A stretch of 64,000 nt of DNA from an uncultured Chloroflexia bacterium. GTDB taxonomy: Bacteria > Chloroflexota > Limnocylindria > Limnocylindrales > CSP1-4. The stretch spans positions 480,001-544,000 of the forward strand of contig CAVTHS010000008.1 in NCBI GenBank assembly GCA_963734535.1. Direction: 5' to 3'. Shown here piece after piece: positions 26,549-38,939 of this stretch; position 1 is the stretch's first letter, and every line of letters begins with the position of its first letter. Both the position numbers and the translations under genes were made by a program. Under the pieces are notes generated by a model. The model was not told the DNA's origin. It did not search any database and saw only the letters and a list, made by a program, of their open reading frames with translations.

Positions 26549-26968
26549 TCAGCCGGCCCGCGTCACATCCTCCTTCAGCTCCAGGACCAGCTGCATCAGT
26601 CGATCCACGGATGGGTCGAGGAGGTCGTGGAGCACGGGGTCGACGTCGCCGAGCCCCCCCAGTCGCTCGACACGGACATCGCCGAGGCCTTCCCAGGTGA
26701 TGCCCAGCAGCCCGCTGATCCTTCGCGCCGCGTCCTGCTCCTCGCTCTGGAGGTGGAACGTGTCGGCCACTCGGGCGATTTCCGCCCGAATCTCGTCGAT
26801 CAACGCCTCCATCCGGACCCGCTGCTCGGCAGAGAACGGCGCGCGATCGCGACGATAGAGACGCCCGAAAGCGTCTTCATCCATCAGGCGGCGCACCGTC
26901 GCAAGGCGCTCCTCGAGCAGCCGCAACCTGATCGTTACGGCCCGCTCCTGGCCGGGGTTGAGGTTCAT
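26549..26968 (-). CDS. hypothetical all-helical protein, probable third gene of MutS-like operon
   Basis: 139 aa amphipathic helices, L-G-G motif; 58 bp downstream of MutS-like gene. Confidence 0.7.
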   Translation of the reverse strand: MNLNPGQERAVTIRLRLLEERLATVRRLMDEDAFGRLYRRDRAPFSAEQRVRMEALIDEIRAEIARVADTFHLQSEEQDAARRISGLLGITWEGLGDVRVERLGGLGDVDPVLHDLLDPSVDRLMQLVLELKEDVTRAG

Positions 26969-27026
26969 GCGACGCCAATGGTCGCGGGCGCAAGGCCGTG
27001 GCCCGGGCCTGCATCTCGCAACGCGC

Positions 27027-28555
27027 TCACGCGGCCTCGCCGGAGTCGGCGCTGTCAAGTCCGTCGTGGCCGAAGACCCGGCGGTAGACGTCCCGCCCGA
27101 AGCTCGTCGGCAGCGGCGGCGCTTCGCGGAGCAGGAACGGCCGCTCGCCGTCCGTCCCTCGTTCCGCCCGGAGGAAGAGAGCGTCGGGCATCCCGAGTTG
27201 ATGGAAGGTCTCGGCGAGGTCGTAGAGGTGGGTGACATAGGCGACCTTCACCCCGTGCTCGAGGAGCGCGAGCACGATTCCTCGGGCGATCTGCGAGCCT
27301 TCGCGCTCGTTTGTCGCCGAGAGCGACTCGTTGAGGAGGACGAGGCTCCGGCCGCTCACGTGATCGATGACCTCGCTCATCCGCGCGAGCTCCTCGTCGA
27401 GCTTGCCTCGCTCCAGCGTCGGGTCCTCCTCCCGCCGGAAGTGGGTCAGCACCGCGTCCCGGACATCCGCGCGATACGCGTCGGCGGCAACGAACATCCC
27501 CGCCTGCATCATGAGCTGCGCGATCCCGATGGCGCGCAGGAGCGTGGACTTTCCTCCCCCATTGGCGCCCGTGATGACCAGGAGTGCCTTGCCATCCCCA
27601 GCAACGTCGTTCCCGATCGCACGTCCGTCGATCCTGAGGCTGAGGGCCGGGTCGTAGAGCCCGCGGGCTGTGAGCGTCGCCGACCCCACGGCGGGCGGGC
27701 CAGGGAAGCACAGGGGCTCACCCTTCGCGGCGAGCACTGCGTGGAGGTTGAGACAGCCAACGTAGAAGGCGAGCTCGGTCCGAAGCTGCTCGAAGAACCT
27801 GTGGACGTGCTCGGTCGACTCGGCGAGCGCCGCCGCTGCCGATGCGAGCCCCGCATCGCGGATCTCGCTGAGCGTGTGCATCCCGGCGTCGTCGCGCGCG
27901 ACCGACCTCGTAGGCGAAGCTGCGCCGCTCCTCGAGCCCGATCCACTCGCGCCAGGTCCGGCCGTCGCGGTGCCGCCGCCGCAGCACGAGGTCGGCCGCC
28001 CGCCCTTCCGGTCCGAGACGTGCGCTCACGAGCACCCCGCGTTCGATCGCTGAGCCGTTTCACGTGCTGCTCGACGGATCGAAGGTACGTGTCGTCAAGC
28101 TCTGCTTCGACGGTCTCGAAGAAGCGGCGGAACCCCTCCGACGAGAATCGGGCGGCATGCGCCGCGGAGATCGCGCGCAGCCGTCGAAACGACCCGAGGT
28201 AGACGACGAGGGCCGCCACGGACCGGTGGACCACGGCGTCCGGGGAGCGCAGCCCGTAGCCCCAGACCTTGCGACGCTCGCCTTCCTGCGTCTCGAGCGT
28301 GAGCTGGTAGAGCTCCCGGATGACCGCCTCCTCGGCGAGCGCGTCGCGGAGCACGTCCTGCCGGTACGCGATCGAGGCGGGATCACCGGGCGCGGCGAGC
28401 AGGATGTCCCGCGCCACTTCCGCCAGGAGGCCGTCGCGCCCCGCCATCGCGCCGATGACCGTCTCGAGCTCGAGGTCGGCAATGACGGATGCGAGATGGG
28501 CGGCCGGCCGCGCGAGGACGAGGTCGCCGTCGCGGGCGGTCAGGTGCGGCCTCAC
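27027..28555 (-). CDS. MutS domain V ATPase (MutS4B-like), two frameshifts near 28048 and 27901
   Basis: I-YRQDVL-D, F-SEGF--FF, ELAFYVGCLNL, ITGANGGGKSTLLR, THFRREED, GKLDEEL, LLNES-SATNEREG, VTHLY; spread over three frames. Confidence 0.85.
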
Positions 28556-30111
28556 GCGGCGACCCGCCCCTTCACGAGCTCGTACGTCAGCCCGTGCTTG
28601 CGAGCGATCGCCTCCGCATACGCAAGGCCGTCGGCGGGCCGGCGTTCGAGCTTGAACGTCCGCCGACCAGGATCGGCGGGGTCCACCGCGGCAACGAGGC
28701 TTACGGTGGTGGCCGTCAGGGACGCGAGCTCGTCGAGGAAGGTGACGACGACCGCGAGCAGGTCGAGCCGGACGGCCGCGCCGAGGATCGCCTCGTTGAG
28801 GAAGAGCGCGTCGCTCACCGTCGTCGAGCTGAAGCTCTCGTTCATCACCAGGAGGGTCCGCGGCGTTGCCGCACCGAGGATCCGGCGGATCCGCTGCAGA
28901 TCATCCTCGAGCTTGCCGGCCAGGTTCCCCAGGTCTTCCGAGCGCTCGAAGTGCGTGTGGATCGCATCGACGAGGAAGACCCGTGCCTCCGTGCCGGGCA
29001 CGGGGCAGCCGAGCCGGGCGAGGTGATGGAGCTGGCCGACCGCCCGCGCGAATGTCGTCTTGCCGCCCTGGTTCGGGCCGGTGACGACGACGATCCGATC
29101 TGTCCCCGCGAGATCGAGGTCGTTCGTGATGATGGCGCGGCCGGGGACCGCGAGCTTCGCGGCGAGTGCGAGGTCGAACACCTCGCGCACGCACGTCGCC
29201 TTCGAGTCGGCCGACACCTCCGGATAGCAGAACTCGAGCCCGTGGGGCCGGAGGTCGTCGATCCGCTCGCGGTACGCAAGGTAGAACTGGATCTCGCGGT
29301 CGAACCCAGCCAGGGTCGGGTCCATGAAGCCGCCGTGGTCGGCGGCGAACGCGATCAGTGCCGCGAAGGCGTCGGGATGCATCCGGGCGACGCCCTCGAG
29401 CACGGCTGCCTCCACGTGATCGAGGGCTCCCTTCGACGGCATCGAGAACTCGGGTGGCGCCACATCGGCTGCCCGGAAGCGCGCGAACGTGGCGCGCAGC
29501 TCCACGCCGTAGTCGGGCTCGGCCTCGTAGGAGCTGACGACGACCCGGCGTCCGGAGATCCGGAGCCGAACGTCGAGCGCGTCCAGCGCGGCGAGGACAC
29601 GTCGGGCATCCGAGCCGAGCGTCGCGAAGGCATCCGAACCAACGTAGCCCCGCAGATGGTCGGCGATCTGCCTGAGGCCGCGCGAGCGCGGGCCGGCCGC
29701 GTCGAGCGTGTCGGCGAGGGCGACGATCGTCGGGACGTAGACCCGCACGGCCTCCAGGAGCCAGCGCTCCCGTTCGTATCGATGGCGGCTGGCTGACGAA
29801 CGCGCCATCCTGCCGCGGACGAGCCGCATCGCGTCCGCGAACGACCGGAGCGAGGCCGTCAATTCGCTGGACTCGAGGTCCCGGAAGACCTCGTGCCGAA
29901 AGGCGACCGCTTCGACATCAGGACACGGCGCGAAGAAGAACCCCCGCAGGTCGTACTCGTCGCGCCGCCACGTGAGCCACGATGCGATCTCGTCGAGGTG
30001 GAGATCAACGACGAAGTCGCCGGACTGGGCCGCCGGCCAGCGGTCGGGAGCGCGGTCGAAGAGGACGCTCACGGCGCCCGGACCTGCCGCCGGGCGTGGA
30101 TCCTCGGTCAT
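28552..30111 (-). CDS. MutS domain V ATPase (MutS4A-like)
   Basis: DL-LD-I, FRHEVFRDL, FDREIQFYLAY, VTGPNQGGKTTFAR, THFER-E, GKLEDDL, MNESFSSTT, VTFLDEL, RTFK--R-PADG-AYA; 4-nt overlap with partner. Confidence 0.9.
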   Translation of the reverse strand: MTEDPRPAAGPGAVSVLFDRAPDRWPAAQSGDFVVDLHLDEIASWLTWRRDEYDLRGFFFAPCPDVEAVAFRHEVFRDLESSELTASLRSFADAMRLVRGRMARSSASRHRYERERWLLEAVRVYVPTIVALADTLDAAGPRSRGLRQIADHLRGYVGSDAFATLGSDARRVLAALDALDVRLRISGRRVVVSSYEAEPDYGVELRATFARFRAADVAPPEFSMPSKGALDHVEAAVLEGVARMHPDAFAALIAFAADHGGFMDPTLAGFDREIQFYLAYRERIDDLRPHGLEFCYPEVSADSKATCVREVFDLALAAKLAVPGRAIITNDLDLAGTDRIVVVTGPNQGGKTTFARAVGQLHHLARLGCPVPGTEARVFLVDAIHTHFERSEDLGNLAGKLEDDLQRIRRILGAATPRTLLVMNESFSSTTVSDALFLNEAILGAAVRLDLLAVVVTFLDELASLTATTVSLVAAVDPADPGRRTFKLERRPADGLAYAEAIARKHGLTYELVKGRVAA

Positions 30112-30218
30112 GGCTCGTTCTCACCTGCGACCAGCCGGTCGGTCCCGCGACCGGAGGGTCAACGCTGCGCTCGACTCGGCGCGATCGGAGGTGGTGCTCC
30201 CGACCCTCTTGCTCCCGG

Positions 30219-30256
30219 ATACACGAATGGCTCCTGGAACTGGGTCCAGAAGCCAT
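30219..30256 (-). terminator. terminator-type hairpin overlapping 3' end of minus-strand fluoride aptamer
   Basis: ATGGCTTCTGGA-loop-TCCAGGAGCCAT 12-bp stem followed by TCGTGTAT. Confidence 0.65.
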
Positions 30257-30292
30257 CACCCGCGAACGGGATACGGCGCGAGCTTCATCGCG
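30246..30292 (-). ncRNA. fluoride riboswitch (crcB motif) upstream of MutS-like pair
   Basis: CGCGAUGAAGCUCGCG-CCGUAU-CCCG(UUCG)CGGG-UGAUGGCUUCUG: P1, P2 and GAAGC/GCUUC pseudoknot. Confidence 0.8.
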
Positions 30293-30309
30293 CGATCGGT
30301 TGTCACCCA

Positions 30310-30338
30310 AGCATGGGCCCAAGCGTGAAGCCCGTCAA
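30310..30338 (-). promoter_or_regulatory. sigma70-type promoter for minus-strand riboswitch/MutS operon
   Basis: TTGACG-17 nt-CATGCT on minus strand just upstream of the aptamer. Confidence 0.55.
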
Positions 30339-30361
30339 ACAACCGTCTTGCGGGCCGCGCG

Positions 30362-30390
30362 TTGACGGTCGGGCAGGGAGGTCCTACGCT
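30362..30390 (+). promoter_or_regulatory. sigma70-type promoter for plus-strand riboswitch
   Basis: TTGACG-17 nt-TACGCT, 8 nt before the aptamer. Confidence 0.65.
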
Positions 30391-30398
30391 CGCGCCAC

Positions 30399-30462
30399 GG
30401 CGATGGTGTCCGCCGAGACGCTGGTGCGTCTGAACCGCCCGGTATGGGCTGATGGCCCCTCG
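30399..30462 (+). ncRNA. fluoride riboswitch (crcB motif) upstream of PPase-like gene
   Basis: GGCGAUGGUGUCCGCC-(hairpin)-GAACCGCCC-GGUAU-GGGCUGAUGGCCCCU matches the consensus GGCGAUGGnGUUCGCC...AACCGC...GCUGAUGnCnCCU; one pseudoknot mismatch. Confidence 0.85.
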
Positions 30463-30492
30463 ACTGCATCGGCAGACGTGGGGCTTCTTCTT
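30455..30492 (+). terminator. intrinsic terminator (riboswitch expression platform)
   Basis: GCCCCTCGACTGC-ATCG-GCAGACGTGGGGC followed by TTCTTCTT. Confidence 0.7.
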
Positions 30493-30509
30493 GCCCCGGA
30501 CGGAGGCAC

Positions 30510-31889
30510 ATGACGGCCGACGCCGCGACCCTCGGGCCAGACTCGGGGCATGCTCCGGCACGGCTCCGTATCGAGGTCGTCGAGGCGCTCGGCCCGGGCC
30601 TCGAGCTCGCACACGACCAACGCACGGGTGGCCTCGTTGCTGCGCGCGCCCGGTCCGGCGGCCTGTGGCTCGGGTTCGATCGCGGGGCCCTGGTGGACTC
30701 CGACGACGGGTCCGGCCGCTCAGTGCCCGTCATCGTCGCGGTTCCCGGCTCGACATGGCCAGGCTGCCAGGTCGACGCGGAGATCGTGGGCGCCCTGGCG
30801 GCTGGCGGTCGGACGATCCTCGTCGCGAGGATCAGTGGAGTCCCCGAACCGCTGCCGGCGGTCGCACGCGTCGTCGCCCAGGTGCCCGAAGGGGCGTGGC
30901 TCGACGCGGCAACGGCAGCCGGGATCGCAGCCGCTGCCCGTCGCGAACACCGGCGGCGCCAGGCGATGGACCGGATCGTCGGTGGCCGGGCGTGGGAGGC
31001 GTCGGGGGCAACGCCCGAGGCCGCCCGCTTCACGACCCCGCACTCGCTCGCCGAGTACTCCCTCGGACGGCTACCGCCGCGGTTCCTCCGTGGCCTTCGG
31101 GATCTGCTCGACCCAGGCGAGCGGATCCTCTACTCGATCGAGCGCCCCGGGATCACCGCTACGGGCTTCATCGGGCAGGTCCCACGGCAGGACCGGCGGA
31201 GCGCACTCCTGGTCCTGACCGATCGCCAGGTCGCCTGGCTCGTCGACCACGCGGACCCTGACCGCTACCTCTCGGACTGGGGCATCGATGCCGAGACGAT
31301 CCCGATCGAGCTCGTGACCGCCGCCCGCGTGGTCGAGTCGGGTCGCTGGTGTCGACTCGTCATTGCCACCGACCGTGGCCAGACCGAGGCGCGGCTTCCG
31401 GCCGAGCTCTCATCCGAAGTGGGGGTCGCCGCCCAGCTGATCGAGCGGTTCATCCCGGCCGCGGACGTGCGCCTCCCGCGCCGGCGGTACGTCGTCGAGC
31501 GCCGCAACATCGACTGGTCTCGGCTCGATGCGTTCAGCGGGGGAACGGACGTCCGTTCGCTGACGAGGCAGCTCGATGCCGATGCGGTCGCATGGCTCCT
31601 CGGCCCAGCGCGCCAGGGCCACCCTCGCGCCGAGGCGTGCGCGCTCACCCCCGACTCGATCGCCTTCATCTCCGGTCGCCGCCGTCACGATGTTCCGCTC
31701 GGTGCTGTCCATGCCTTCCGGATCGCCCTCTCGCCTCTCGTCGGGAGGTTCGAGGTCGTCGGGTCGCGGGTGCTGGGCGCGATGACGTTCCCGGCGCCGT
31801 TCGGCGACCTTGCGGGTACGTTCGTCCGCTCGGCGGGCCGCCTGACCGCCACCGTGCCGGGCGTGAGGCACCAGCCATCGCCGACCTGA
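30510..31889 (+). CDS. hypothetical protein: degenerate inorganic-pyrophosphatase-like N-domain plus two PH-like domains
   Basis: GF--GAL--DDG---VPVIV-----WPGC-V-AE-VGAL resembles the family I PPase OB core without DGDPLD; LLDPGERIL...LLVLTDRQV...IPIE-V resembles bacterial PH; GGAGG RBS. Confidence 0.6.
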   Translation: MTADAATLGPDSGHAPARLRIEVVEALGPGLELAHDQRTGGLVAARARSGGLWLGFDRGALVDSDDGSGRSVPVIVAVPGSTWPGCQVDAEIVGALAAGGRTILVARISGVPEPLPAVARVVAQVPEGAWLDAATAAGIAAAARREHRRRQAMDRIVGGRAWEASGATPEAARFTTPHSLAEYSLGRLPPRFLRGLRDLLDPGERILYSIERPGITATGFIGQVPRQDRRSALLVLTDRQVAWLVDHADPDRYLSDWGIDAETIPIELVTAARVVESGRWCRLVIATDRGQTEARLPAELSSEVGVAAQLIERFIPAADVRLPRRRYVVERRNIDWSRLDAFSGGTDVRSLTRQLDADAVAWLLGPARQGHPRAEACALTPDSIAFISGRRRHDVPLGAVHAFRIALSPLVGRFEVVGSRVLGAMTFPAPFGDLAGTFVRSAGRLTATVPGVRHQPSPT

Positions 31890-32150: not shown

Positions 32151-32236
32151 TCTCGGAGCGGCTGCGGCCGCCGGTGGCGGCCCCGTGGTCAGGGTCCCGG
32201 GCCCACCGTCCCGGATACGCGAAGCGAGGAAGTCCC

Positions 32237-32656
32237 ATGTCCCGTCTTACCAGCTGGCTGCGCCCGTCGACGGTCGCACACGCGCACTGCGACATCCCAT
32301 GCGGCATCTACGACCCGGCCGAGGCCGTCCAGGCGGCGCGGACCGTCGCCCGGATGGTGGAGCTGATCGGCAAGCTCCCCGAGGGCTCGACCGCCGTCGC
32401 CGATCGGAACACGTTCGTCCGCTGTGTGGCCGTCAAGGAGCAGCACGCCGAGAAGGTGAAGCACGAGGTCCAGGTCATCTGGTCCGACTACTTCAAGCCG
32501 GAGCATCTCGCGGCGTTCCCCGAGCTCCACACCAAGGTCTGGAACCTGCTCAAGCTCGCGGGCAAGAACAAGCAGGGCATCGACGCGCAGGCGGCTGCCG
32601 ATCTCGAGGCGGCCACCAAGGAGTTCGCGGAGATGTTCTGGGCGACCAAGAAGTAG
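32237..32656 (+). CDS. sodN: nickel superoxide dismutase precursor
   Basis: leader followed by Ni-hook HCDIPCGIYDP; KE-HAE-VK, WSDYFKP-H, FWATK. Confidence 0.96.
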   Translation: MSRLTSWLRPSTVAHAHCDIPCGIYDPAEAVQAARTVARMVELIGKLPEGSTAVADRNTFVRCVAVKEQHAEKVKHEVQVIWSDYFKPEHLAAFPELHTKVWNLLKLAGKNKQGIDAQAAADLEAATKEFAEMFWATKK

Positions 32657-32752
32657 CCGACGCGGCGAGCCGGCAGGACCCGGCGTGCCGGCGTCGCGCA
32701 CGACGTCACCGCGGCGCCGCGCAGCGGTGATCGGCCAGGCCGGCCTGTCGAC

Positions 32753-33232
32753 GTGACGGGCCGGCGACGATCGGGGCGCGCCGGTCGACCCTGGCGGCTT
32801 CGCCTGTTCCTGCTCGCGTCCGCGGTCCTCGCGCTGGCCTGGGACGCGGGCGCTCTCGCGCGCCGTGCGCGCCGCGGACCGTGGCGCGCCGAGGTCGTCG
32901 GCGAGAGCATGGTCCCGGCACTCCGAAACGGCGACTGGCTGCTGGTCGACCCGACACCGGCCCGATGGCCGCGGCGGGGTTCGGTCGTGGTCGTCCGCGA
33001 GCCGGAGGGCGACCTCGTCGTCGTGAAGCGCATCGCCGCGCGCCCGGGTGACCGGGTTGTCCGGGCGGATGGGTCGGTCACCGTGCTCGGCGCAACGGAG
33101 GCGTGGCTCCTCAGCGACGCGCCGGACGAAGCGATCGATTCGCGGCGATATGGACCGGTTGACGCCGAGCTGCTGCTGGGCCGCGTCGCGTGGCGATACG
33201 GACCCATCCGGAGATTTGGACCCGTGCGCTGA
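32753..33232 (+). CDS. sodX: S26 family peptidase, Ni-SOD maturation protease
   Basis: V-GESM-P-L--GD, VKRI, DSRRYGPV; adjacent to sodN. Confidence 0.85.
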   Translation: MTGRRRSGRAGRPWRLRLFLLASAVLALAWDAGALARRARRGPWRAEVVGESMVPALRNGDWLLVDPTPARWPRRGSVVVVREPEGDLVVVKRIAARPGDRVVRADGSVTVLGATEAWLLSDAPDEAIDSRRYGPVDAELLLGRVAWRYGPIRRFGPVR

Positions 33233-33263
33233 GCCGGCCGCGCCGGCGCGCGAGCGCGCGACG

Positions 33264-34172
33264 CTACCCGGCAGCGACGCCCAGCGCCTGGCCCGCGAGC
33301 GGCACGTGGGCGGCGCGCACGTCAGCCGCGAAGGACGCAAGCCCCTCGTCGCTGGTATCCCACCGGGACGGGAACATGATGATCCGGTCGAGGCCCAGCG
33401 CGGCGTAGCTGCCCAGGCGGTCGACGCGCGCCTGCCCGTCGGCACGGGAATCGTTGTCGCGGCTGTAGAGGGAGATGCGCAGGGTCGAGGGATCCCGGCC
33501 CTCCTCCTCGCAGCGCTGGCGCGCGACGGGGAGCGCTTCGCGGATCTCGTCGGGTCCCAGGAAGACCAGGTTCAGCTCGTCCGCGTAGCGGGCCGCGTAC
33601 CGGAAGGTCACGTTCTGCCCGTTGCCGCCGACCACGATCGGGATGTGCCCCTGGATCCCCTTCGGCACGTTGATTGCCTCTTCGACGCGCGCATAGGCGC
33701 CCTCGAACGTGGCCTTGCCCGGGCCGAGCATCCGCCGGATCACCTCGAGATGGTCACCGAGCGCGCCGAGGCGCTCCCGCAGCGTTGGGAAGCCGTAGCC
33801 GTACGCAAGCCACTCGTCTTCCTTCCAGCCGGCACCGATCCCGAGCTCGAAGCGGCCGCCCGAGATCACGTCGATCGTCGAGGCCATCTTCGCGGTGAGG
33901 GCGGGGTTGCGGAAGCCGGTGCAGACCACCATGTGGCCAATTCGCGCGCGTGACGTCGCCTGCGCCAGCGCCGCGAGCATCGTGAACGACTCGAAGGTGA
34001 TCTCCTCGGTCGGGTTGGGCACCGTCGTGAAATGGTCGAAGACCCAGAGGGACTCGAAGCCCAGCGCCTCGGCCTGCTGCGCCCGCGCGATCGAGTTCGC
34101 CCACGCGTCCGCGGGACTCCAGCCGTCGAACTCCCCTTTCCAGCCCTGGGGAACCATCACCCCGACATCCAC
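33264..34172 (-). CDS. LLM class (probably F420-dependent) oxidoreductase
   Basis: PQGW, AEALGFESLWVFDHF, FRNPAL-AKMA-TIDVISGGR-ELGIGAGW, VGGNG. Confidence 0.9.
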   Translation of the reverse strand: MDVGVMVPQGWKGEFDGWSPADAWANSIARAQQAEALGFESLWVFDHFTTVPNPTEEITFESFTMLAALAQATSRARIGHMVVCTGFRNPALTAKMASTIDVISGGRFELGIGAGWKEDEWLAYGYGFPTLRERLGALGDHLEVIRRMLGPGKATFEGAYARVEEAINVPKGIQGHIPIVVGGNGQNVTFRYAARYADELNLVFLGPDEIREALPVARQRCEEEGRDPSTLRISLYSRDNDSRADGQARVDRLGSYAALGLDRIIMFPSRWDTSDEGLASFAADVRAAHVPLAGQALGVAAG

Positions 34173-34282
34173 GTGTGCCCACTTCCTCCGACATCGACCG
34201 ATCGGTCGCGATCCGGCCCGCGCGACCACGCGCGAGCGTCCAGTCCACCATCCCCACCGGCGTCGAGCCTATCATCGGCGGC

Positions 34283-35572
34283 ATGGAGCTGCCGCCGCCG
34301 TTCGACCCGACCGTCCTCGCCCACCCGGACCCGGAGGCCACCTTGTCCGGCCCGCCGACACCGTGGGCGTCCCTGCCGGCGCCCGCGCGTCGAGACGGCC
34401 CCCCGTGGTGGATGACCGAGATGATCGATGCGGAACCGGCGCTCGCCGGCCGCCTGCTCCGGCGCCTGGGCATCGTCCGGCGCAGCTCGGGCGTCCCGGG
34501 CGTGCCCGCGAAGCTCGAGGCGCCCGGTCGTGACACCTCGGCCGGACGCCTCGCGGCGGCGATCCGCACCGCGCTGGAGGCCGGCGACCCGGTGGTGGTC
34601 ACCGGGTGTGGCACCAGCGAGCACGGTGCGATGGCGTTCGCCGCGATCGTCGCCGATGCGGCCGAGCGTGGAGGCATCCGCGGCTCCGGGAAGCCCGGCA
34701 GCGTGCTGGCACGCCAGGCGTTCGAGGCCTCGCTGGCACCCCAGCGCGGCGGGCTGATCATCGGCATCAGCCACGAGGGCGGCACGGGGGCGACGCTGGC
34801 CGCGTTGACCGCCGCCGCGGCCCTCCGCGCGAAGGTCGCGGCGGTCACCGTGAGCCGGCTGGCCCCGATCGGCGGCCTGAGCCCCTTGATCCTCGAGACC
34901 GCAGAGATCGACCGGAGCTGGTGCCACACCATCGGCTACCTCTCCCCGATCCTGGCCGGCGTCGCCGTGGGGGCCGCGCTGACCGGCGAGGCGGGCGATG
35001 CAGACCCGGGCGTCATCCGGCCGCTCCTCGCGGCGGGTCTCGAGCAGGCCACCTCCGCCGAACGCATCGCCGCCGAGCTGGCCGGCTGCCGCGAGATCAT
35101 CGTGCTGGCGTCCGGCGCCGACACGACGGCCGGCCGCGAGCTCGCGCTCAAGGTGGAAGAGGCAACCTGGCTGCCCGCGGCGTTCCGCGAGACCGAGACG
35201 TTCCTCCACGGCCACCTCCCGGCGATGGACGGGGCGACCGGCCTCGTGCTCATCCTCGCCGACCGCGCGGGACGGGAGGCGCGCTCGGCCCGGGCGCAGC
35301 AGGCGCTCGCGGCGGCAGCCCGGATCGGGATGCGGCCGGGCGCGATCCTGGCCGCGGACCTGGACCGCGAGTGGCCGGCATTCCTTGCGCCGGCCGGCAG
35401 GCTCCTCGTCCCGGAGGCACCGGCGCTGCCGGGCCCCGTCGCCGCGCTCATCGGGACGGCCACGCCGCTCCAGCTCCTGACCGAGCGGCTTGCGCGCGCC
35501 CGCGGGACGGACCCGGACCCGATCCGGCGCGACCAGCTCGCCTACCGCGAGGCCGCCGCGCTCGCGGAGTAG
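34283..35572 (+). CDS. double-SIS sugar isomerase/deaminase (GlmS/AgaS-like, no glutaminase domain); start uncertain
   Basis: M-EMI-AEP, GCGTSEH, ISHEGGT, SWCHT-GY, ARELALKVEE, ETFLHGH, PLQLL, DPD. Confidence 0.85.
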   Translation: MELPPPFDPTVLAHPDPEATLSGPPTPWASLPAPARRDGPPWWMTEMIDAEPALAGRLLRRLGIVRRSSGVPGVPAKLEAPGRDTSAGRLAAAIRTALEAGDPVVVTGCGTSEHGAMAFAAIVADAAERGGIRGSGKPGSVLARQAFEASLAPQRGGLIIGISHEGGTGATLAALTAAAALRAKVAAVTVSRLAPIGGLSPLILETAEIDRSWCHTIGYLSPILAGVAVGAALTGEAGDADPGVIRPLLAAGLEQATSAERIAAELAGCREIIVLASGADTTAGRELALKVEEATWLPAAFRETETFLHGHLPAMDGATGLVLILADRAGREARSARAQQALAAAARIGMRPGAILAADLDREWPAFLAPAGRLLVPEAPALPGPVAALIGTATPLQLLTERLARARGTDPDPIRRDQLAYREAAALAE

Positions 35573-35578
35573 CCGGAC

Positions 35579-36526
35579 TCAGCCGCGGACCAGGACCTCG
35601 CCGAGCAGGTCCACGTGGGCGAGGTCCCAGGGCAGGAAGTCCTGGAGCATGAGCCGCTCGCACCCGGCCGCCTCGAACCGGGCGGCCATCGCGCGGGCCT
35701 CGTCCGGAGTGCCGTAGATCCAGCGCGGCCGGCGCGTCTCGAACCAGGCAGTTCCCTCCGCGGCCATCCCGAACGCGTCGAGGAGCGCCCGTGACCGGCG
35801 CTCCACCTCGGCAGCGTCGCGACCGATCAGGGCGCCCGCCATCGCCGAGTGGCGAATCGTGGAGGGATCCCGGCCGGCCTCCCGGGCGATCGTGTCGAGC
35901 ATCGCGAAGCGCTCGACCACGCGTTCCGGGGACGCGCTGGAGAGGTTGAACTCGTCGGCGAAGCGAACCGCGATCCGCATCGAGCGCGGGCTCCCCTCGC
36001 CACCCACGATGAGCGGCGGCGCCGGCTGCTGGACCGGCCGCGGCCGGAGCAGCCCGGCCGGGACCTGGTAGTGGCGGCCGCTGAAGGACCACCCGTCCGG
36101 GCCCTGCCACAGGCCGCGAAGCACCTCCAGCTGCTCCTCCAGCATCTCGGCGCGCACCTCGATCGGCGGGAACGGGAAGCCGTGGTGCTCGTGCTCGGCC
36201 TGGTTCCAGCCGGCCCCGAGGCCGACGTCCAGTCGCCCGCCTGACATCTCATCGACGGTCGTGGCCAGCTTGGCAAGGTTGCCCGGGTGCCGGAACGTCA
36301 CCGGGGAGACCAGGGCGCCGATCCGGATGGTGGTGGTCTCGCGGGCGAGCCCCGCGAGGACGGCCCACGCGTCGGTCGTCGGCCGCCCCGATGCGCCCGG
36401 GAAGCTGTCGTAGTGGTCCGAACGCAGGAAGGTCTCGAACCCCGCCGCCTCGGCGTGCCGGGCAACCGCCAGCTGGTCCGCGTAGGAGCAGCCCTGCTGG
36501 GGCTCGATCATCAGCGCATATCGCAT
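35579..36526 (-). CDS. LLM class (probably F420-dependent) oxidoreductase
   Basis: EPQQG-SY, F-RSDHY, TDAW--LAGLARET, LVSPVTFRHPG, DEMSGGR. Confidence 0.9.
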   Translation of the reverse strand: MRYALMIEPQQGCSYADQLAVARHAEAAGFETFLRSDHYDSFPGASGRPTTDAWAVLAGLARETTTIRIGALVSPVTFRHPGNLAKLATTVDEMSGGRLDVGLGAGWNQAEHEHHGFPFPPIEVRAEMLEEQLEVLRGLWQGPDGWSFSGRHYQVPAGLLRPRPVQQPAPPLIVGGEGSPRSMRIAVRFADEFNLSSASPERVVERFAMLDTIAREAGRDPSTIRHSAMAGALIGRDAAEVERRSRALLDAFGMAAEGTAWFETRRPRWIYGTPDEARAMAARFEAAGCERLMLQDFLPWDLAHVDLLGEVLVRG

Positions 36527-36621
36527 TCGGCTTCTCCGTGTTTCTGGCCGCCTGGGTGGATCCTCTGTCGGGCCCCGGGATATTCGCGCGTCGATACTTC
36601 CCGTGATCGAAATGGTTGCCG

Positions 36622-36653
36622 TTGACGAAGTGATCTTGGTTCAGATATATTAT
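36622..36653 (+). promoter_or_regulatory. promoter of marR-MFS operon (likely leaderless)
   Basis: TTGACG at 36622 and TATATT/TATTAT at 36646-36653 in an AT-rich patch just before GTG 36658. Confidence 0.55.
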
Positions 36654-36657
36654 TGAC

Positions 36658-37218
36658 GTGATCGTAACAACAACGCCGGCCCTGGCGGCCGACCCGGCCA
36701 CGGCCGTCGAACCGACCCGTTCGCCCGAACGCCGGGCGCTGATCGAGGAGATCCTCGCCGGGACTGCCGTGATCGCCGGCCATCAGCGCTGCGCGGTCGC
36801 CCGAAGGCTGCACCGGCAGGGCATCAGCATGGCGCACCTGCAGACGCTGTGGATTCTGCAGGAACACGGCCCCCAGCCGATGACCCACCTGGCGGACCTG
36901 CTGGGCGTCGCGGTCCCGAACGCGACCGGCATCATCGACCGGATGGAGCAGCGCGGGCTCGTCGAGCGTCTCCGGGACGGCGCGGACCGCCGTGTCGTGA
37001 TCGTCCGGCAGACGCCGGACGGAGCGCGCGCGGTCGAGGAGGTCGATGGCTGGCGGAGCGAGATGCTCCAGGCGCTCCTGCTGCGGCTCGACACCGACCA
37101 GCTCGTGCGCCTCGTGGGCGGCATCGAGGAGCTTCGCGCGGCAATCCTGACACACGGGACCGACCTGCCACTGGACGCGGCAGGACCAGGTCCGGGAGAG
37201 GAGACAGCACGACCATGA
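36658..37218 (+). CDS. MarR family transcriptional regulator
   Basis: LADLLGV--PNATGIIDRMEQRGLVER-RD-ADRRVV. Confidence 0.9.
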   Translation: MIVTTTPALAADPATAVEPTRSPERRALIEEILAGTAVIAGHQRCAVARRLHRQGISMAHLQTLWILQEHGPQPMTHLADLLGVAVPNATGIIDRMEQRGLVERLRDGADRRVVIVRQTPDGARAVEEVDGWRSEMLQALLLRLDTDQLVRLVGGIEELRAAILTHGTDLPLDAAGPGPGEETARP

Positions 37219-38939
37219 TGGAAGGGGCACCGGTCGCGGAGGGCGCGGGGGGCGCGCCCGTCGGCGCACCCCACCCGGCCGTCGAGATCTCACCGCGAGC
37301 GCGGTTCGAGGTCCTCGGCGCAATCCTGCTCGCGCTCCTTCTCGGCGCGCTCGACCAGACGATCGTCGGGACGGCGCTGCCGCGCATCGTCACCGATCTG
37401 CACGGCAACGACCTCTACACGTGGGCCGTCACGATCTACCTGCTGACCTCCACGATCAGCGTCCCGTTCTACGGCAAGCTGTCCGACTACTACGGCCGGA
37501 AGCCCCTCCTCATCTTCGGGATCACGGTCTTCCTGGTCGGCTCTGCGCTCTCGGGCCTGAGCGGCGAGATGTGGCAGCTGATCCTCTTCCGTGGCATCCA
37601 GGGCATCGGGGCCGGCTCGCTCTTCCCGATCTCGCTGGCGGTCATCGGCGACCTGTTCACGCCCGCCGAACGGGGCAAGTACCAGGGCCTGTTCGGGGCC
37701 GTGTTCGGGCTCTCGGCCCTCGTGGGTCCGGCGCTGGGCGGGATCATCACGGACACCGTCGGCTGGCACTGGATCTTCTACATCAACCTGCCCATCGGCC
37801 TCTTCTCGCTTCTCGTGGTCAGCCGCGTGCTGCCGAGCGTGAAGCGCCCCTATCACTCCCTCGACCTGGACCTCGTCGGCGCGTTCGTCTTCGTGGCCGC
37901 GATGATCCCGCTCCTGGTCGGCCTCACGAACAAGCAGACCGCCGACTGGGCGACTCCCGAGGTTGGCGGGCTCCTGCTGATCGCTGCGGTGCTCATCCCG
38001 GTCTTCCTGTTCATCGAGTCGCGGGTGAAGCAGCCGATCGTCCCGCTCGACCTCTGGCGCAGCCGCACGTACGCGGGCTCGCAGATCGCGACGTTCTTCG
38101 CGGCCTTCGGCTTCTTCTCGGCCACGATCTTCCTGCCGCGCTTCTACCAGGTGGTCAGGGGCGACAGCGCGACGATCTCGGGCTACGAGCTCTTCCCGCT
38201 CCTGGTGGGCGTCATCGTCTCGAGCATCGTCAGCGGCCAGATCGTGGCCCGGACGGGCAGGTACAAGGCGCTCCTGCTCGCCTCGGTCGTGTTCGTGGGC
38301 GTCGGCTCGCTCCTGTTCACGAACCTCGCCGCGACGTCCGACCCGTGGGTGATCCGCTTCTGGCAGTTCGTCCTGGGCGCGGGGATCGGCCCCACGCTGG
38401 CGGTCTTCACGATCGTGATCCAGAACGCGGTGCCGTTCAGCAAGCTCGGCGTGGCGACCTCGAACCTCACGTTCTTCCGCCAGATCGGCGGCACCGTGGG
38501 CCTCTCGATCGCGGGGTCCCTGTTCGGCACCCAGATCGCCAGCCAGATCCCGGCCCGCCTCCTCGCGAACGGCATTCCGCAGCAGGCCGTGGCCCAGTTC
38601 CAGGGTGGTGGCTTCGATCTCAACAACCTGGTCGGCGTCGGGGGCACGCTGGGCCAGCAGATCCTTGCGGGTGTCCCGGCCCAGGTCCGGCCGGTCGTGG
38701 AACCCTTGATCCCGAAGATCGTGACCTCGATCTACGAGGCGATGTCGCTCGCGATCGGGTCCGTCTTCTGGCTGGGGCTGGGAGCCTCCGTGCTCGCATT
38801 CCTTGCCGTGCTCGTCATCCGGGAGCTGCCGCTGCGCTCCTCGCTCGGGCCTGCCCGCGCGCAAACGCCGGGAGCTGCTGCGCCGAACCGGCCCGGCACC
38901 GACGGCGTTGGGCACACCCCAGCGCTCGCCGGGGAGTAG
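37215..38939 (+). CDS. DHA2 family (14-TM) MFS efflux pump
   Basis: LDQTIVGTALP, GKLSD-YGRK, FRGIQGIG, GP-LGG, W-WIFYINLP. Confidence 0.93.
   Translation: MMEGAPVAEGAGGAPVGAPHPAVEISPRARFEVLGAILLALLLGALDQTIVGTALPRIVTDLHGNDLYTWAVTIYLLTSTISVPFYGKLSDYYGRKPLLIFGITVFLVGSALSGLSGEMWQLILFRGIQGIGAGSLFPISLAVIGDLFTPAERGKYQGLFGAVFGLSALVGPALGGIITDTVGWHWIFYINLPIGLFSLLVVSRVLPSVKRPYHSLDLDLVGAFVFVAAMIPLLVGLTNKQTADWATPEVGGLLLIAAVLIPVFLFIESRVKQPIVPLDLWRSRTYAGSQIATFFAAFGFFSATIFLPRFYQVVRGDSATISGYELFPLLVGVIVSSIVSGQIVARTGRYKALLLASVVFVGVGSLLFTNLAATSDPWVIRFWQFVLGAGIGPTLAVFTIVIQNAVPFSKLGVATSNLTFFRQIGGTVGLSIAGSLFGTQIASQIPARLLANGIPQQAVAQFQGGGFDLNNLVGVGGTLGQQILAGVPAQVRPVVEPLIPKIVTSIYEAMSLAIGSVFWLGLGASVLAFLAVLVIRELPLRSSLGPARAQTPGAAAPNRPGTDGVGHTPALAGE

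Follow-up and report, generated by a model that had tools for sequence, protein, structure and literature searches.

The closest described relative of the RNAs discussed here is the fluoride riboswitch (Rfam family RF01734), for instance the crcB RNA of Bacillus cereus, a transcriptional ON-switch. They have in common the helices P1 and P2, a pseudoknot that ties the loop of P1 to the 3' tail, the GAUG and UGAUG segments, the A40-U48 pair, a terminator competing for the 3' strand of the pseudoknot and the presence of mutS-type genes downstream. Passages of the fluoride-riboswitch literature tie the A40-U48 linchpin pair and U41 to function, and the overlap of aptamer and terminator is, in such passages, the published layout of the transcriptional ON-switch. 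The main text of Weinberg et al. (2010) lists mutS among the genes of the crcB motif and notes overlapping terminators; the crcB-mutS link is already published and is not new. According to a passage of a 2024 review, the most frequent partners of fluoride riboswitches include pyrophosphatase and Na+/H+ antiporters, with exporters ranking first. The literature search, which covered main texts, returned no function for the crcB-linked MutS-like genes, no divergent pair of fluoride riboswitches (supplements, e.g., the Additional Files of Weinberg et al. 2010, may list related contexts) and no Chloroflexota variant of the riboswitch.

We analysed a 64-kb stretch of DNA (hereafter the window; G+C 72%) from a MAG of 3.2 Mb in 14 contigs, with a completeness of 89.9% and a contamination of 7.1%; related records carry the labels Chloroflexota and Limnocylindrales. 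An intergenic region of about 400 bp separates a minus-strand ATG at 30111 from a plus-strand ATG at 30510, and each strand carries an aptamer-like RNA there (Table 1), the P1 starts of the two lying 106 bp apart. An earlier reading, made from the sequence only, had described two crcB-motif aptamers about 100 bp apart on opposite strands, and we confirm both of them: the plus copy by a score above the RF01734 cut-off, the minus copy by its structure, conservation and context. Very probably, the intergenic region contains two separate fluoride riboswitches served by back-to-back divergent promoters, of which the minus aptamer represents a conserved subclass that we call class B. For both RNAs, the best reading is a fluoride riboswitch in the terminator-type ON layout. 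The pair joins a canonical aptamer bearing an insert to one that is invisible to Rfam, and would control an operon of MutS-like ATPases and the gene we call PPL. Compared with described fluoride riboswitch systems, it stands apart through its back-to-back arrangement and because it controls no exporter gene.

Table 1. Features of the two divergent transcription units (coordinates of the window).
Feature	Position	Strand	Detail
Fluoride aptamer, class A	30399..30460	+	RF01734 37.7 bits, gathering score 34, E 7.5e-07
Plus-unit promoter, TTGACG-17-TACGCT	-35 30362-30367, -10 30385-30390	+	read from sequence
Plus terminator-like hairpin	30454..30492	+	GGCCCC 30454-30459 pairs with 30480-30485 around a CUGC/GCAG inner stem
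PPL, P0002, 459 aa	30510..31889	+	GGAGG 30502-30506 ahead of ATG
Fluoride aptamer variant, class B	30248..30292	-	structural descriptor, conservation, context
Minus-unit promoter, TTGACG-17-CATGCT	-35 30338-30333, -10 30315-30310	-	read from sequence
Minus terminator-like hairpin	30217..30256	-	AUGGCUUCUGGA (30256-30245) pairs with UCCAGGAGCCAU (30238-30227)
MutS-like ATPase 1, P0001, 519 aa	28552..30111	-	PF00488 E 8e-15
MutS-like ATPase 2	27027..28555	-	PF00488 E 2e-18; split over three reading frames
Small conserved ORF behind MutS-like 2	26549..27238	-	no Pfam family

Two aptamers of different classes

The plus aptamer (class A) forms P1 between 30399-30402 and 30411-30414, followed by an extra hairpin of 15-16 nt (30416-30431) inserted ahead of J12, which reads UGAACC. 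Its P2 pairs 30437-30441 with 30445-30449, and the 3' strand of the pseudoknot, GGCCCC, occupies 30454-30459, with U48 at 30460. Four pairs are formed in P1, four (or five) in P2 and five of six in the pseudoknot, and GAUG, UGAUG and U48 are all present. This copy departs from RF01734 fluoride riboswitches in two ways: through the 16-nt hairpin that separates P1 from J12, and through a pseudoknot containing a U.C mismatch; all 14 distinct class A sequences share this mismatch. RF01734 is the sole Rfam family above threshold in the window, and the plus aptamer is the sole above-threshold match to it in the whole host genome; its orthologues score 36.3 and 36.0 bits. RNAalifold, applied to 16 related leaders, recovers the class A P1, the inserted hairpin, P2 and the downstream stem, the inserted hairpin varying in length among these leaders and changing a G-C pair to A-U in five of them.

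The minus aptamer (class B) has no inserted hairpin. Its P1 pairs CGCG (30292-30289) with CGCG (30280-30277), the whole region reading CGCG-AUGAAGCU-CGCG, its pseudoknot joins GAAGCU (30286-30281) to GGCUUC (30254-30249) through six pairs of six, and P2 is CCCG-UUCG-CGGG (30270-30259). The GAUG segment is also present, as are UGAUG (30258-30254) and U48 (30248). In comparison with RF01734, the first P1 pair is flipped, the pseudoknot strand is GAAGCU and the linker contains GUAUC: J12 reads CCGUAUC (CCGAAUC in the related genome G005), against a consensus of uuAACC and the UGAACC of the plus copy. The positions linked to function in fluoride aptamers are all occupied as expected in this copy; besides those of the linchpin they include A6, U7, G8, U38 and G42, which Ren et al. 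(2012) reportedly described as functional, phosphate-donor nucleotides.

Covariance models give class B no support. With RF01734, nothing was reported for the minus copy at E<=10 in the 701 bases searched, nor for class B in any of five further loci at E<=1; the G005 orthologue, which differs by one linker base, reached 20.5 bits (E 0.076). At the equivalent place in G008 we found an insert-bearing aptamer of 23.0 bits, with GAGGC/GCCUC replacing GAAGC/GCUUC. We also built our own covariance model from 15 class A aptamers, leaving out a mixed-class MAFFT alignment in which P1 and P2 were misaligned. Its score for the minus copy, 16.0 bits (E 0.12), lies within noise, and other class B copies obtained 12.4-19.3 bits; probable chance matches do equally well, e.g., 35777-35850 of the window with 16.1 bits. 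These models miss the minus aptamer because it has no inserted hairpin and because its P1, pseudoknot and J12 are changed. The sequence-only reading had foreseen a compensatory variant that might score weakly, and its P1, pseudoknot and P2 are as it described them; the RF01734 search on both strands that it proposed retrieved the plus copy and left the minus copy without a match. What argues for class B is structure, pocket nucleotides, conservation and context, and its membership of the family rests on a hand-made descriptor together with that context.

The descriptor (a 4-bp P1, AUGR, five or more of the six pseudoknot pairs, a 4-bp P2 and UGAYG) matched 52 times in real loci and 0 times in 3,068,675 shuffled bases. 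Over the 3.2-Mb host genome it retrieved both copies described here and two others with long linkers, which are taken to be chance matches. Fourteen other loci carry class B in nearly identical form: in the 15-locus alignment all 210 cells are paired, and the core shows two one-sided changes only (A-U to G.U and G-C to G.U). What varies is the loop of P2, the bases at the start of the linker, the spacer of the promoter and the leader further downstream, and the neighbouring proteins are only 40-50% identical. Class B also has an invariant AAC-containing stretch 5' of P1, which is absent from the other classes. The pairs covary across 42 distinct aptamers of the clade, belonging to three classes, and here the variety of pair types alone is informative, since the pairing itself is preset by the descriptor. 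The first P1 pair is GC in 28 and CG in 14 of them, the second pseudoknot pair GC in 16 and AU in 24, and the third AU in 15, GC in seven, GU in three and UA in one; P2 pairs 1, 3 and 4 are GC or CG, and the U48 position is a U in 39 of the 42.

Promoters, hairpins and transcripts of the two leaders

Promoters of the form TTGACG-17-(T/C)AnGCT, as proposed earlier, can be read on both strands, and in relatives their boxes are kept and their spacers vary: TTGAC and TAnnCT are conserved in the 16 aligned class A leaders, and TTGAC(G/A) in 12 of 15 class B leaders. The -35 boxes of the two divergent promoters are 23 bp apart, and transcription would start near 30397 for the plus unit and near 30304-30302 for the minus unit. 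An E. coli-type consensus scan of 29900-30700, a segment that includes both leaders, returned 0 promoters and 0 terminators.

Behind each aptamer, a hairpin takes up the 3' strand of the pseudoknot, again in agreement with the earlier description. The plus hairpin (30454-30485) has a folding energy of -24.4 kcal/mol (z -3.1) and its 5' strand is the 3' strand of the pseudoknot; RNAalifold retrieves its stem along with compensatory changes, and it is followed by the tail UUCUUCUU, which in the relative L040 is not U-rich. The minus hairpin (30256-30227; -19.1 kcal/mol, z -3.7) overlaps the 3' pseudoknot strand, and the U-richness of its tail, UCGUGUAUCC, is only moderate. Its 10-bp stem is 100% paired across 15 sequences; one of the pairs has changed at both bases and two others at a single base, and its covariation score was matched or exceeded by 1 of 500 shuffles.

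These elements suggest the following scenario. Each leader would begin with a crcB-type aptamer, and at low fluoride the 3' pseudoknot strand (GGCCCC on the plus strand, GGCUUC on the minus strand) would be pulled into the downstream hairpin, which, being followed by a U-containing tail, would stop transcription. Readthrough would lead on the minus strand to MutS-like ATPase 1, MutS-like ATPase 2 and the small conserved ORF, and on the plus strand to PPL, a protein with a predicted pyrophosphatase-fold domain. We infer fluoride binding, termination and induction at both leaders from the sequences, pairing, conservation and gene contexts that were observed. With a weak U-tail on the minus strand and a plus tail that in L040 is not U-rich, terminators of low efficiency or a partly translational mode of control are possible.

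In one run of a wetland metatranscriptome, short contigs fall on 30135-30243, 30160-30304 (five differences) and 30446-30584 (eight differences, one gap), and they cross each hairpin and extend into the leader or gene that follows. They derive from a relative, may include DNA carry-over and do not let strand or ends be read, and they hint only weakly at transcription of both leaders with readthrough. One contig end, at 30304, falls within the inferred minus start, which again is a hint only. The same run contains no contigs on 29600-30116, 30305-30351 and 30634-31000, an absence to which no evidential weight is given.

Genes behind the leaders and the module in relatives

The only MutS domain present in MutS-like ATPase 1 is domain V, whose Walker A motif reads GPNQGGKT. 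In Pfam and NCBIfam searches of the MutS-like proteins, MutS domains I to IV, including the mismatch-binding domain, and the Smr domain were unmatched, and the NCBIfam models for MutS, MutS2 and KamC gave 49-63 bits against cut-offs of 300-642 (400-642 for the MutS and MutS2 equivalogs). An identity as the MutS mismatch-repair protein was rejected, since domain I is unmatched, PF00488 is the only family found and the equivalog scores are far below their cut-offs. Nearer are the MutS2-like and KamC-like ATPases devoid of a mismatch-binding domain, which share the same MutS domain V and GPNQGGKT Walker A; the genes described here differ from them in that they always form a tandem pair and in their NCBIfam scores. 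Orthologues of MutS-like 1 are found in G005 (83%), G002 (77-89%) and G008 (48%). MutS-like 2 was recovered by tblastn in three pieces (28043-28555, 27904-28044 and 27033-27899) and, set against L040 and L041, has one extra nucleotide near 28046 and another near 27901; the intact protein has 531 aa in L040, and the frameshifts may represent an assembly error or decay. The true start of the small ORF behind it is probably near 26995, since the similarity spans residues 82-227. This ORF has tblastn matches in L040, L041, L047, L048, L064 and L075, and in L064 and L075 an aptamer immediately precedes it.

PPL did not match any family in Pfam and NCBIfam searches, and its 185 homologues are all unnamed. 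In its AlphaFold2 model (mean pLDDT 79.9), residues 14-158 are predicted to form a family I inorganic pyrophosphatase fold, as indicated by Foldseek (4z73_D, E 2.2e-6) and by VIA, which superposed model residues 16-149 on chain residues 0-159 of 160 of 1sxv with a Z of 12.6 and an rmsd of 3.9 over 111 residues. In the comparison with family I pyrophosphatase (PF00719), the domain superposes on almost the full length of the enzyme, at Z 11-12.6 with about 111-130 aligned residues; PPL differs from the latter in having no PF00719 match and some 300 extra residues. The sequence profile of PPL compared with PDB sequences gave a best match at chance level (E 0.63). The catalytic Asp motif of family I inorganic pyrophosphatase is DxDxxD. 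A weak hhalign alignment of PPL with the pyrophosphatase of the same genome (probability 18%) places S68, R70 and P73 at the Asp positions and faintly suggests that this motif is lost in PPL; the ordinary pyrophosphatase is encoded elsewhere in the host genome. The C-terminal 265 residues are predicted to form two beta-sandwich-plus-helix modules (about 206-312 and 361-448), for which an Atlas search found unnamed clusters at 0.92 and bPH_3 and DUF4429 at 0.83-0.85, a lead towards PH-like modules. Judged by the predicted structure, PPL is a new pyrophosphatase-fold protein family. The earlier description of a divergent regulon of non-transport genes stands as far as the genes are concerned, and needs correction in that the regulon is less foreign to fluoride biology than implied, because the PPL fold is related to that of pyrophosphatase, a classic target of fluoride. 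A complex prediction for MutS-like 1 with PPL ended with a score of 0.00 and 'no answer', which counts neither way. A Ni-superoxide dismutase gene is located 3' of PPL, at 32174.

The arrangement in relatives was followed through 36 PPL loci, namely 35 relatives and the window, after exclusion of L013 as a duplicate of L069. The full MutS-like pair is present within the flanks of 21 of them, in divergent (4), convergent (11) or tandem (6) orientation, and a MutS-like 2 fragment in four more. Aptamers were counted when they matched a covariance model with at least 20 bits or matched the descriptor. On this basis, an aptamer precedes PPL by no more than 600 nt in 16 of the 36 loci, and in seven it stands on the same strand 1.4-4.8 kb ahead of the gene, none being found in the other 13 (three of which have short flanks). 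Of the 23 MutS-like 1 genes, 22 are preceded by an aptamer at a distance of at most 600 nt, belonging to class B in 13 and to the insert-bearing classes in nine; no aptamer was found for the gene in L067. Back-to-back aptamer pairs occur in five of the 36 loci (the window, L040, L041, L046 and L074). RF01734 matches at E<=0.01 are present in 10 of 42 genomes of the genus, seven of them over the cut-off, and from this limited distribution the module would be accessory.

The absence of a transporter from both transcription units, reported in the sequence-only reading, was confirmed, the nearest one being an MFS gene (36657-38939) past opposite-strand genes. Following its suggestion to search the genome for exporters, we did not find CrcB (PF02537) in the host genome, nor in any of the 42 genus genomes (13 of which are at least 90% complete), whereas the positive control detected it in 11 of 14 reference genomes. 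The host encodes a single CLC protein of 817 aa with a C-terminal extension, which resembles Cl-/H+ exchangers (E 1e-22 to 1e-26) more closely than it does CLC-F 6d0j (E 1.3e-8), and no aptamer was found upstream of its gene. By the CrcB profile and this CLC comparison, the host bacterium appears to have no recognisable fluoride exporter.

Alternative readings of the pair

Several other explanations of the two RNAs have to be weighed against that of two fluoride riboswitches. One of them, hardly credible, takes the minus element for a look-alike that has decayed or arisen by chance and regulates nothing: the covariance models do leave it unsupported in the window and MutS-like 2 is frameshifted downstream of it, but the 3.07 Mb of shuffled sequence gave no descriptor match, the core is invariant in 15 loci despite diverged flanks, the element has a fixed position ahead of MutS-like 1 and its terminator stem covaries. 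If it is a genuine regulator, class B could still be a specialised offshoot of the fluoride aptamer with another ligand or a clearly different threshold, so that the divergent units would answer different signals or doses. Such an offshoot would account for a sequence distinct enough to escape both RF01734 and the class A model, for the different J12 and the invariant stretch 5' of P1, and for the occurrence of both classes in the same genomes with no replacement of one by the other. We consider it improbable, however, as the ion-pocket nucleotides and the linchpin pair are unchanged and as sister genomes have the same MutS-like operon behind insert-bearing aptamers (RF01734 23-24 bits), which argues for the same signal.

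The sequence-only reading had called the pair a bidirectional switch, which is right for two abutting switches and fails for a coupled device. In such a device, both aptamers and promoters would act as one, e.g., through promoter competition or transcriptional interference, and the short distance between the -35 boxes as well as the recurrence of back-to-back pairs speak for it. It is nevertheless very improbable, because divergent orientation is found in only four of the 21 loci with both gene sets, own aptamers are kept in all gene orders and no sequence feature links the two RNAs. Whatever their orientation, each of the two units retains an aptamer of its own, so that the arrangement in the window points to two autonomous switches brought together and not to one device, and the divergent layout is a curiosity and not a new mechanism.

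A wider proposal starts from the same two autonomous fluoride switches and takes them for the organism's whole riboswitch-controlled fluoride response, free of exporters, with PPL, the paired MutS-type ATPases and the small ORF as an exporter-independent fluoride-tolerance machine and class B as a subclass setting a different threshold for the ATPase operon. We regard it as speculative and rather unlikely. PPL might contribute to such a machine two PH-like modules and a domain of pyrophosphatase fold whose active site has been reworked, and one possibility would be the ATP-driven rescue of phosphoryl-transfer enzymes or complexes poisoned by Mg-fluoride. The clade offers, with PPL, the two MutS-like ATPases and the small ORF, a compact module for asking what the crcB-linked mutS-like genes do. 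Fluoride regulons in Chloroflexota are probably under-counted, since a conserved subclass of the aptamer is invisible to the Rfam model. Directly behind aptamers of the clade we also found genes for a Na+/H+ exchanger, which is a known fluoride-riboswitch partner, a DUF190-CBS protein, MoxR-type AAA ATPases, a NUDIX protein and a dynamin-like GTPase.

Aptamer-linked genes in the clade

Related MAGs carry fluoride aptamers upstream of genes for a Na+/H+ exchanger, a DUF190-CBS protein, MoxR-type AAA ATPases, a NUDIX protein and a dynamin-like GTPase. This range of genes suggests that the fluoride regulon of the clade is wide. At one locus (L063 1192-10631), DUF190-CBS and PPL, the pyrophosphatase-fold protein, are flanked by two MutS-like pairs; the locus has three aptamers in all. 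Within the genus, RF01734 matches occur in 10 of the 42 genomes, and CrcB/Fluc (PF02537) was found in none of the same set, 13 members of which are at least 90% complete. The single CLC of the source genome has about 150 residues N-terminal to the channel domain, which may reflect a mis-called start, and a TrkA-C-like C-terminal end.

Coordinates of the features discussed (L-numbers, other loci compared)
Feature	Position	Strand	Remark
Small ORF	window 26549-27238	-	3' of the MutS-like pair
Small-ORF counterparts	L064 1349-1747; L075 7667-8053		
MutS-like 2	window 27027-28555	-	coding spread over three frames
ACAACC stretch	window about 30302-30297	-	alignment A3
Ni-superoxide dismutase	window 32174-32656	+	neighbour
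Luciferase-like monooxygenase	window 33264-34229	-	neighbour
Luciferase-like monooxygenase	window 35579-36640	-	neighbour
MFS transporter	window 36657-38939	+	neighbour
CLC	L009 769-3222 (G000:C4, source genome)	-	817-aa open frame
Aptamer-preceded genes named above (related MAGs)	L046 4662-5975; L063 4571-5878; L048 2446-3504; L074 2241-3389; L053 2028-2489 and 10402-11502		
UGACG aptamers	L013 3096-3158; L046 4386-4456; L053 11539-11599; L070 2640-2694; L071 (two); L074 1700-1773		

Aptamer sequence variants

The class B leaders, represented by the minus-strand aptamer of the window and compared in alignment A3, lack the consensus AAC in J12 and carry, immediately 5' of P1, an invariant ACAACC that contains an AAC, whose As might stand in for those of the linker. 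Another deviation, U41 to C, replaces UGAUG by UGACG in 7 of 42 distinct clade aptamers. For the B. cereus fluoride switch, a U41A mutant that does not respond has been described.

Genes around the window aptamers

No aptamer was found at any of the four neighbouring genes (window 32174-38939), namely those for the Ni-superoxide dismutase, the two luciferase-like monooxygenases and the MFS transporter. In MutS-like 2, comparison with two other loci (L040 and L041) located two insertions of 1 nt, near 28046 and 27901, neither at a long homopolymer, and the frame breaks represent either an assembly error or gene decay. The small ORF behind the MutS-like pair matched no Pfam family; since its counterparts in L064 and L075 lie directly behind a fluoride aptamer, it may constitute a fourth member of the module.
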